Source: Escherichia phage 24-32N. Taken from it: a stretch of DNA of 64,000 nucleotides. Position 1 is the first letter of the stretch, and each line of letters starts with the position of its first letter. A model generated the notes under the pieces. The model ran no database searches. It was not told where the DNA came from and saw nothing but the letters and a program-made list of their open reading frames with translations. The translations under genes were made by a program, and so were the position numbers. This document shows positions 2,622 to 3,192 of the stretch, in pieces. Location: sequence record PV933157.1; one strand, written 5' to 3'.

Positions 2622-2839
2622 TGTACGCAACTGATTATGGTGTATGCCCTGTATGTAACAAACGTAAAGGAGTTGCCAATCATAAGAAGTGTAGTCGTAT
2701 TCTACAGAAACGACGGAACCGGGAAGAATGGAATAAGATATTGGAAAACCAACACAAAGATGAGTTCAAGAAGACGGCTATTAAAGCATCTACTCAACTC
2801 ATTCGTCGTACTAACTTCATAGAAGGTTATCAGAAATGA
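2618..2839 (+). CDS. hypothetical Cys-containing basic protein
   Basis: ATGATG start overlapping upstream stop; CPVC motif. Confidence 0.5.
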   Translation: MMYATDYGVCPVCNKRKGVANHKKCSRILQKRRNREEWNKILENQHKDEFKKTAIKASTQLIRRTNFIEGYQK

Positions 2840-3192
2840 AACTAATCGTAGCTGGTGGAAGAGACTTCGTAGATACCAATCGTATGATTGAGGAATTACA
2901 GAAGTTAGTAAATTCAGAGAATATACCTGATTGTCCAGAATTAGTATGTGGTATGGCTCGTGGTGCAGATATGCTTGCATATAGCCTATGGGCTAATAAT
3001 AAAATGCCCATTCATAATTTCCCAGCAAACTGGGATAAGTATGGAAAGTCTGCTGGTTATAGACGTAATCAGGAAATGGGTGAATTTGCAGATGCTGCTG
3101 TATGCTTCTGGGATGGTAAATCCAAAGGAACCAAGCACATGATTGATATCATGCAGAGACTGGGTAAACCTGTATATGTTGTGAGGTACTAA
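2836..3192 (+). CDS. SLOG/DprA-like Rossmann-fold protein (DUF2493/YspA-like), function unknown
   Basis: IVAGGRDF...CGMARGADMLAYSLWA...VCFWDGKSKGTKHMI pattern resembles DprA/SLOG nucleotide-binding fold; start overlaps upstream stop. Confidence 0.55.
   Translation: MKLIVAGGRDFVDTNRMIEELQKLVNSENIPDCPELVCGMARGADMLAYSLWANNKMPIHNFPANWDKYGKSAGYRRNQEMGEFADAAVCFWDGKSKGTKHMIDIMQRLGKPVYVVRY

Follow-up and report, generated by a model that had tools for sequence, protein, structure and literature searches.

We asked what is encoded by a short open reading frame near the left end of a 64,000-nucleotide stretch of Escherichia phage 24-32N DNA (record PV933157.1; this whole stretch is called the window below), and what its product might do during infection. 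The original prediction had described the product as an early-region SLOG/DprA-like Rossmann protein that may manipulate host nucleotide signalling or DNA uptake and repair.

The gene and its family

The open reading frame on the plus strand begins with ATG at 2836, ends with TAA at 3192 (the span is exact) and specifies 118 amino acids. Its ATG shares an ATGA (2836-2839) with the stop codon of the preceding ORF (2618..2839), and an AGAAGG Shine-Dalgarno-like stretch lies 9-10 nt 5' of the start. Pairwise comparison with seven orthologues of the gene gave dN/dS values of 0.22-0.46. The protein matched Pfam PF10686 (YAcAr, 'YspA, cpYpsA-related SLOG family') at 40.8 bits, above the curated gathering threshold of 28.2 bits (E=2e-10), with residues 1-69 covering all 66 model positions, and it matched PHROG 289 with E=1.5e-32. 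PF10686 was also found in all of the 120 close homologues listed. These results confirmed that the 118-aa ORF is a real gene with a family match far beyond chance. The family is very common in phages and already catalogued, so that membership is no new observation: orthologues have been annotated as DUF2493 or DprA-like in papers on N4-like phages and in GenBank records, where their labels read 'hypothetical', 'DNA processing protein DprA' or 'GTP-binding domain'. The NCBIfam and PADLOC defence models gave no match for the 118-aa protein, which is stand-alone, consists of one compact domain and carries no effector domain. Its net charge is near neutral, and the pI within the family varies widely (4.7-9.9).

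A word-indexed search found 7,061 relatives among 90% clusters, and when all 50%-identity representatives were scanned with HMMER, 17,224 matched at E<=1e-3, 5,131 of them at E<=1e-10. With tblastn, matches were present in 963 of 50,697 phage records (about 2% of sequenced phage genomes) and in 152 of 72,556 plasmid records. Among the plasmid copies, a 313-aa protein of rhizobial conjugative plasmids has the DUF2493 domain at its C-terminus, and its gene adjoins strawberry-notch and toprim genes (locus L003, 6413..7354); on a Geobacillus plasmid, the last part of a DNA polymerase III alpha gene is overlapped by a DUF2493 gene (locus L004, 5971..6351). Giant viruses also carry the SLOG family according to the literature (Iyer et al. 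2021, 2022; EVADES, 10.1101/2025.06.06.658234), and a survey of viral SLOG domains found them in 7% of small phages, 19% of medium ones and 31% of jumbo phages, with the YpsA-like clade predominant (PMC9503650). The same authors called viral SLOG domains experimentally uncharacterised (Iyer et al., PMC9503650). In the searchable literature we found no report of a measured ligand or activity for any YAcAr-family member, and a literature search for an experimentally characterised anti-Thoeris SLOG protein likewise returned none.

Fold and conserved residues

Does the protein have the SLOG fold? In the structural model it is predicted to form a five-strand sheet in beta-alpha repeats, that is, the three-layer alpha/beta Rossmannoid arrangement of SLOG domains, and the Gly-rich or polar loops that follow strands 1, 2 and 4 (G7-G/S-R9, G39-x-A-x-G43-x-D45 and S96-x-G98-T99) are each at least 90% conserved. 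When the model was compared with solved structures, the highest scores were obtained with YpsA (12.2), DprA of three species (11.7, 10.8 and 10.0) and TM1055 (11.0), followed by a Moco carrier protein (10.3), the BcThsA SLOG domain with bound 3'cADPR (10.1) and LOG enzymes (about 9.5), while TIR and deoxyribosyltransferase folds ranked further down. Foldseek gave the same ranking for ShosA, HpDprA and ThsA. Among solved structures, the nearest are the ssDNA binders ShosA and DprA and not small-molecule binders. The similarity to SLOG structures was clear, and the proposed SLOG fold was borne out; of the DprA-like assignment the fold therefore stood, whereas membership of the DprA or LOG families proper did not. 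At the level of sequence, neither the protein nor an 82-sequence profile retrieved a homologue from the PDB, and no family member with a solved structure was found: the best match was S. pneumoniae DprA (E=0.032, N-terminal half), which ranked below chance-level matches to ribosomal S3 and alongside matches to LasR.

The segments on which the original prediction had relied are all present (GGRD at residues 7-10, GMARGADMLAYSLWA at residues 39-53 and FWDGKSKGT at residues 91-99), and they lie within or overlap the conserved parts of the protein. Conservation was counted in 82 diverse relatives (39-56% identity). G7, G43, A64, W66, A73 and R77 were invariant, R9, G39, A41, D45, G74, N78, M81, W92, S96, G98 and T99 were conserved in at least 90%, and further conserved positions were G/S8, G70, D93, G94, H101 and M102 (position 101 is His in 60 of the 82, Asn in 12 and Asp in 4). 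They fall into four motifs:

2854..2865, plus strand: Motif I, G7-G8-R9-D10, the loop after strand 1, equivalent to the DprA G-S/T/A-R motif (G7 in 82/82, G or S8 in 80/82, R9 in 81/82)
2950..2970, plus strand: Motif II, G39-M-A-R-G-A-D45, the loop and helix start after strand 2 (G39 in 81/82, A41 in 80/82, G43 in 82/82, D45 in 81/82)
3025..3078, plus strand: Motif III, P63-A64-x-W66...G70-K-x-A73-G74-x-x-R77-N78-x-x-M81, the start of helix 3 (A64, W66, A73 and R77 in 82/82, N78 in 81/82, M81 in 80/82)
3109..3141, plus strand: Motif IV, W92-D-G-x-S96-x-G98-T99-K-H101-M102, the loop after strand 4, at the position of LOG PGGxGTxxE (W92 in 80/82, D93 in 71/82, S96 in 81/82, G98 in 81/82, T99 in 76/82, M102 in 74/82)

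The four motifs cover the loops that follow strands 1, 2 and 4 and the first part of helix 3, the segments in which the conserved nucleotide-contacting residues of this fold class lie (Iyer et al. 2022, PMC9503650). The conserved residues of the window protein would probably share one pocket, as judged from the SLOG fold in general and not from measured distances.

Neighbouring genes and gene fusions

The window belongs to a Gamaleyavirus (N4-like, Schitoviridae) phage, and its left end has 90-95% DNA identity to other members of the group, e.g. to vB_EcoP_PE007, St11Ph5 and UE-S5b. When it was compared with N4, homologues of gp9, gp11, gp12, gp13, gp14, gp15 and gp16 were found in the same order. 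The SLOG gene is absent from N4: the segment 2618..3447, which contains a 73-aa ORF, the SLOG gene and an 84-aa ORF, replaces N4 gp10 as a three-gene insertion between gp9 and gp11, and the SLOG gene is thus an accessory gene in the N4-like group. The features of this region are as follows:

1400-1419, 2237-2262, 8465-8490 and 8697-8716, plus strand: strong terminator-like hairpins
2237..2262, plus strand: strong terminator-like hairpin 5' of the SLOG block, an 11-bp stem followed by a T run
2313..2621, plus strand: gp9 homologue, a divergent DUF4326 paralogue (72% identity to N4 gp9; PHROG 464, E=1.7e-16)
2618..2839, plus strand: 73-aa ORF with a CPVC...KKC Cys pattern, ending in the ATGA of the SLOG gene (PHROG 6887)
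2836..3192, plus strand: stand-alone SLOG-fold protein gene, 118 aa (Pfam PF10686 YAcAr/DUF2493; PHROG 289)
3193..3447, plus strand: 84-aa ORF directly 3' of the SLOG gene (PHROG 1972)
3769..3993, plus strand: small ORF absent from N4
3997..4380, plus strand: gp12 homologue, a canonical DUF4326 protein (Pfam DUF4326, E=9.5e-23; 91% identity to N4 gp12)
4355..4753, plus strand: small ORF absent from N4, which overlaps the end of the DUF4326 gene if a TTG start is used
4928..5278, plus strand: gp14 homologue, A1S_2505 family, tentatively with a Macro-like fold
8465..8490, plus strand: hairpin comparable to that at 2237..2262, after the gp16 homologue, the likely end of the block 2313..8331

The gp9 homologue scored below the Pfam cut-off for DUF4326 (E=0.01) and matched an iterated DUF4326 profile with E=2.3e-23. 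As it is a second DUF4326 paralogue, the SLOG gene is bracketed by two DUF4326 genes, both on the same strand and within 1.2 kb of it, and the Macro-like protein is encoded 1.7 kb downstream, again on that strand. The gp12 homologue is 91% identical to its N4 counterpart, compared with 65-69% for the RNA polymerase subunits gp15 and gp16 of the same block; this suggests unusually strong constraint or recent exchange. Among 80 viral loci, the flanking 73-aa and 84-aa ORFs accompanied the SLOG gene in close relatives only, except for PHROG 1972 in phage Dru_SM1. In this unrelated phage a PHROG 1972 gene (locus L089, 1678..1980; 28% identity to the 84-aa ORF of the window, E=8e-4) is found two genes upstream of ORF83, the SLOG gene of that phage, and PHROG 1972 may be a second conserved partner.

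When would the gene be expressed? The genes of the block are co-directional, and several of their start and stop codons overlap or abut. Because we found no strong plus-strand terminator between the hairpins at 2237-2262 and 8465-8490, the SLOG gene looks co-transcribed with its neighbours. Its designation as an early-region gene is reasonable by position, as the genes of this left-end block all point the same way and the RNAP II genes, gp15 and gp16, come after it. Perfect hairpins of 5-6 bp with a TCC loop (GGA on the template strand) are present in intergenic DNA at 87-101, 880-892 and 5547-5561 (plus strand), each followed by T(T)ATGGA or TGGGGA, and these three are the only TCC-loop stems among the perfect stem-loops, with eight loop triplets allowed, of the whole 64-kb window. 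We take them to resemble the early hairpin promoters of the N4 virion RNA polymerase. If the third hairpin (5547-5561) drives the RNAP genes, the SLOG gene would be expressed by read-through of the 1400 and 2237 hairpins or from another promoter. Positions 1..9000 of the window are enriched in terminator-like hairpins (22 vs 4.9 expected) and depleted in sigma-70-like promoters (13 vs 27 expected).

Elsewhere in the family, the SLOG domain is joined to some of the domains that are its neighbours here. PF10686 was matched in all 40 long representatives scanned, and their Pfam fusion partners were DUF4326 (in 9), DUF488-N3a (4), DUF488 (2), NADAR (3), Macro (3) and RNase H (1), DUF4326 being the most frequent fusion partner of the family. 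The iterated DUF4326 profile found this domain in 10 of the 150 representatives listed, on either side of SLOG, which points to independent fusion events. As separate genes, DUF4326 and SLOG lie within 5 kb of each other in 16 of 80 viral loci, these being mostly related N4-like phages and so not independent cases, compared with a DUF4326 gene anywhere in 1.5% of phage records. RNAP genes are nearby in at least 22 of the 57 dereplicated groups of viral loci. [quoted passage not shown] 2021, PMC7824862), giant-virus homologues of ORF83 have a C-terminal DUF4326 domain (EVADES, 10.1101/2025.06.06.658234), and SLOG fusions to helicase, HNH and exonuclease domains have been noted (PMC9503650). Viral SLOG domains were predicted to sense or cleave ADP-ribose-derived immune signals (PMC9503650). 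The fusions of jumbo phages and giant viruses involve the same SLOG family and the same partner domains as in the window; there, however, they are joined in one polypeptide, whereas here four small genes, the Macro-like one tentative, lie side by side in an N4-like early block.

Possible ligands and functions

The nearest relative with any phenotype is ORF83 of Dru_SM1. Deletion of this 'Smf/DprA-like' gene was reported to lower plating on Avs type III, as were deletions of the ligase gene ORF55, of ORF72 and of the adjacent ORF84, the last with the strongest effect (Ojima et al., bioRxiv 10.1101/2024.04.14.589459). The ORF83 effect is a single knockout result, with no complementation described in the accessible part of the preprint, and it could be polar on ORF84. 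The effector of Avs type III is a non-specific dsDNA endonuclease, as stated in the EVADES preprint (10.1101/2025.06.06.658234). The Dru_SM1 PHROG 289 protein has R89, N90, T112 and D114 exactly as published for ORF83, and its orthologue CAjan gp82 (Queuovirinae) matches it at 98.5% identity. With the window protein CAjan gp82 shares 30% identity (BLASTP E=5e-9), and it likewise belongs to PF10686 (E=2.1e-18) and PHROG 289; through it, R77/N78 of the window protein align with R89/N90 of ORF83. ORF83 is of similar size (130 aa) and shares the GGRDF, G-x-A-x-G-x-D and R-N motifs with the window protein, but it carries a 12-residue insert before the R-N motif, its Motif IV is PGGAGT-M-D (LOG-like) instead of W-D-G-K-S-K-G-T-K-H, and its phage family and genome position differ.

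The roles proposed in the original prediction, in nucleotide signalling or in DNA uptake and repair, are putative and coincide with the two alternatives of the published literature. We tentatively favour the reading that the pocket binds or processes an ADP-ribose-type nucleotide and that the protein acts with the products of neighbouring genes as an early counter-defence. The predicted pocket would bind a phosphoribosyl nucleotide, with R9 and R77 holding the phosphate, N78, D45, S96 and T99 holding the ribose, and two tryptophans (W66 and W92) stacking on the base. The likeliest class of ligand would be a derivative of ADP-ribose, be it an immune signal or toxin in free form or an adduct of ADP-ribose, and the SLOG protein would sequester or cleave it. 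It would work with the gp9-like and gp12-like DUF4326 proteins and with the Macro-like gp14 homologue, so that the left-end genes would encode separately what the SLOG-DUF4326, SLOG-Macro and SLOG-NADAR fusions of other phages and of giant viruses hold in one protein. Together they would weaken NAD/ADP-ribose-based defences of the host early in infection.

The ADP-ribose reading is favoured by the partner domains, the variable charge and the enzyme-like conservation of the family. The fold and family assignment and the conserved pocket-type Trp, Arg, Asn and Asp residues are consistent with it, as are the fusions to DUF4326, Macro, NADAR and DUF488 and the DUF4326 and Macro-like neighbours in the window, and the same association and prediction had been put forward by Iyer et al. 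in 2021 (PMC7824862) and 2022 (PMC9503650). It is further supported by the patchy, accessory-like distribution of the gene and by the counter-defence phenotype of the ORF83 knockout, and a charge that is near neutral and variable is unlike the need of an obligate DNA binder. Other observations argue against the ADP-ribose reading. The closest structures are the ssDNA binders ShosA and DprA, with which two conserved arginines appear to be shared; the sole experimental phenotype is against Avs type III, which is no ADP-ribose signalling system, is shared with the DNA ligase knockout and may be polar; other fusion partners (helicase, RNase H, HNH, exonuclease) act on nucleic acids; and the neighbourhood cases are mostly from kin N4-like phages.

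Could the protein instead be a miniature DprA-like binder of ssDNA or DNA ends, in which the nucleotide is held by the arginines of the G-x-R and R-N motifs? Such a protein would shield or tag phage DNA, or bring in enzymes for repair or adduct removal (DarG-like Macro, DUF4326, ligase), and as a result nuclease-type or DNA-modifying defences would be tolerated. We consider this rather unlikely, even though DprA/Smf and ShosA are the best structural matches and have the G-S/G-R, G-x-A-R-G-x-D, R-N and S-x-G-S/T motifs in common with the window protein. With hhalign, Motifs I and II, and those motifs only, aligned to E. coli DprA (probability 32%), Motif I falling on 'VVGSR' and Motif II on 'SGLARGID', and in a manual alignment R77-N78 and S96-x-G-T matched FPRRNR and RSGS of DprA. 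R52 and R143 of HpDprA (R139 and R234 of ShosA) are essential for ssDNA binding, according to the ShosA paper. When R52, R143 and R170 of HpDprA were placed on the window protein, they fell on R9 (by hhalign), on R77 (by manual motif alignment only) and on D104, respectively; R9 and R77 would therefore correspond to two of the three ssDNA-binding arginines of HpDprA/ShosA, but the third, again by manual alignment, falls on a mostly acidic position, with D, E, N or Q found there in 66 of the 82 relatives. A weak Pfam DprA match was obtained in 10 of the 40 long relatives (best 2.5e-5), whereas the window protein itself had no Pfam DprA (PF02481) match even at E<=1.

The size of the protein also argues against a DprA-like function. 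DprA is a multi-domain protein, with a length of 374 aa in E. coli Smf and about 328 aa in ShosA: a SAM domain at the N-terminus precedes an extended Rossmann domain (about 200 aa), and a winged-helix domain often makes up the C-terminus. The window protein is one domain of 118 aa, compared with roughly 210 for the DprA Rossmann domain, and has no counterparts of the SAM and C-terminal domains or of the dimerisation and RecA-binding parts. ORF83, too, lacks the DprA dimerisation and RecA-binding residues, and its predicted interaction with RecA is poor (ipTM 0.18; EVADES, 10.1101/2025.06.06.658234). Membership of the DprA/Smf family was rejected (no Pfam match, about half the size, no SAM or C-terminal domains). 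A role on DNA would agree with the relatives that are fused to an SF1B helicase (ICP1 HelB) and to RNase H, with the plasmid copies that adjoin DNA polymerase III alpha or toprim and strawberry-notch genes, and with the sensitivity to Avs type III, a system with a DNA endonuclease as effector per the EVADES preprint, of both the ORF83 and the DNA ligase knockouts of Dru_SM1. However, the Macro, NADAR and DUF4326 fusions suit nucleotide chemistry at least equally, and the charge of the SLOG protein is near neutral, and variable in the family.

A further alternative is a phosphoribohydrolase activity of the LOG type, directed at the N-glycosidic bond in AMP or in a different nucleoside monophosphate, by which nucleotide pools would be altered or an adenine-containing signal destroyed. 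ORF83 has been predicted to be an AMP phosphoribohydrolase: its R89/N90 were equated with the LOG active-site residues R115/K116, and AlphaFold 3 placed AMP in the ORF83 pocket in silico with an ipTM of 0.9 (EVADES, 10.1101/2025.06.06.658234). Via R89 and T112 of ORF83, R77 and T99 of the window protein correspond to R115 and T175 of the LOG active site. In the window protein, however, W-D-G-x-S-x-G-T-K-H-M takes the place of LOG PGGxGTxxE. The position of the catalytic Glu was derived in two steps, from the published ORF83-to-Cg1261 equivalences and then from the alignment of the window protein to the ORF83 orthologue, and it has no acidic counterpart: there is no Glu or Asp two or three residues after the Thr, and the candidate position is H101 or M102. 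The absence of this Glu led us to downgrade the LOG-enzyme reading, which we now regard as improbable; moreover, the LOG structural neighbours score below DprA and YpsA, and the window protein has no Pfam LOG match. Membership of the LOG family was rejected because the motif and the catalytic Glu are absent and no Pfam match was found.

YpsA of B. subtilis (DUF1273) is a 178-residue cellular protein with 12% identity to the window protein, which has no Pfam DUF1273 match. The SLOG domain of ThsA, the 3'cADPR sensor of type I Thoeris, is 13% identical to it and is fused to a SIR2 effector in a host defence protein, whereas the window protein is stand-alone and encoded by a phage; a ThsA-type sensor, that is, a SLOG domain with an effector that is activated by gcADPR, was rejected as a candidate on the basis of the sequence, in which no effector domain and no PADLOC match were found. 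Finally, GTP binding is hardly credible: the sole support for it is the database label 'GTP-binding domain', carried by PHROG 289 and several GenBank records, and the label was rejected since the protein has no P-loop (Walker A, GxxxxGK[ST]).

A more specific arrangement can also be envisaged, in which the SLOG protein, the two DUF4326 proteins (gp9-like and gp12) and a putative DarG/TARG1-like Macro protein (the gp14 homologue) form a four-gene, split 'ADP-ribose eraser', with the SLOG domain as the subunit that would recognise a nucleotide or ssDNA. We regard such an eraser as unlikely. If it exists, it would strip ADP-ribose from phage DNA (anti-DarTG) or destroy ADP-ribose signals made by TIR domains (anti-Thoeris), and both the DprA-like structure and the links to Macro, NADAR and DUF4326 would then make sense; the ADP-ribose and ssDNA readings may also be united if the protein recognises ADP-ribosylated DNA. 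A very large family, without a reported ligand or activity in the searchable literature, is represented here by a copy in a genetically tractable E. coli phage, with the usual fusion partners encoded next to it by genes of their own, which makes this locus a convenient test of whether ADP-ribose-derived molecules or DNA are the target.
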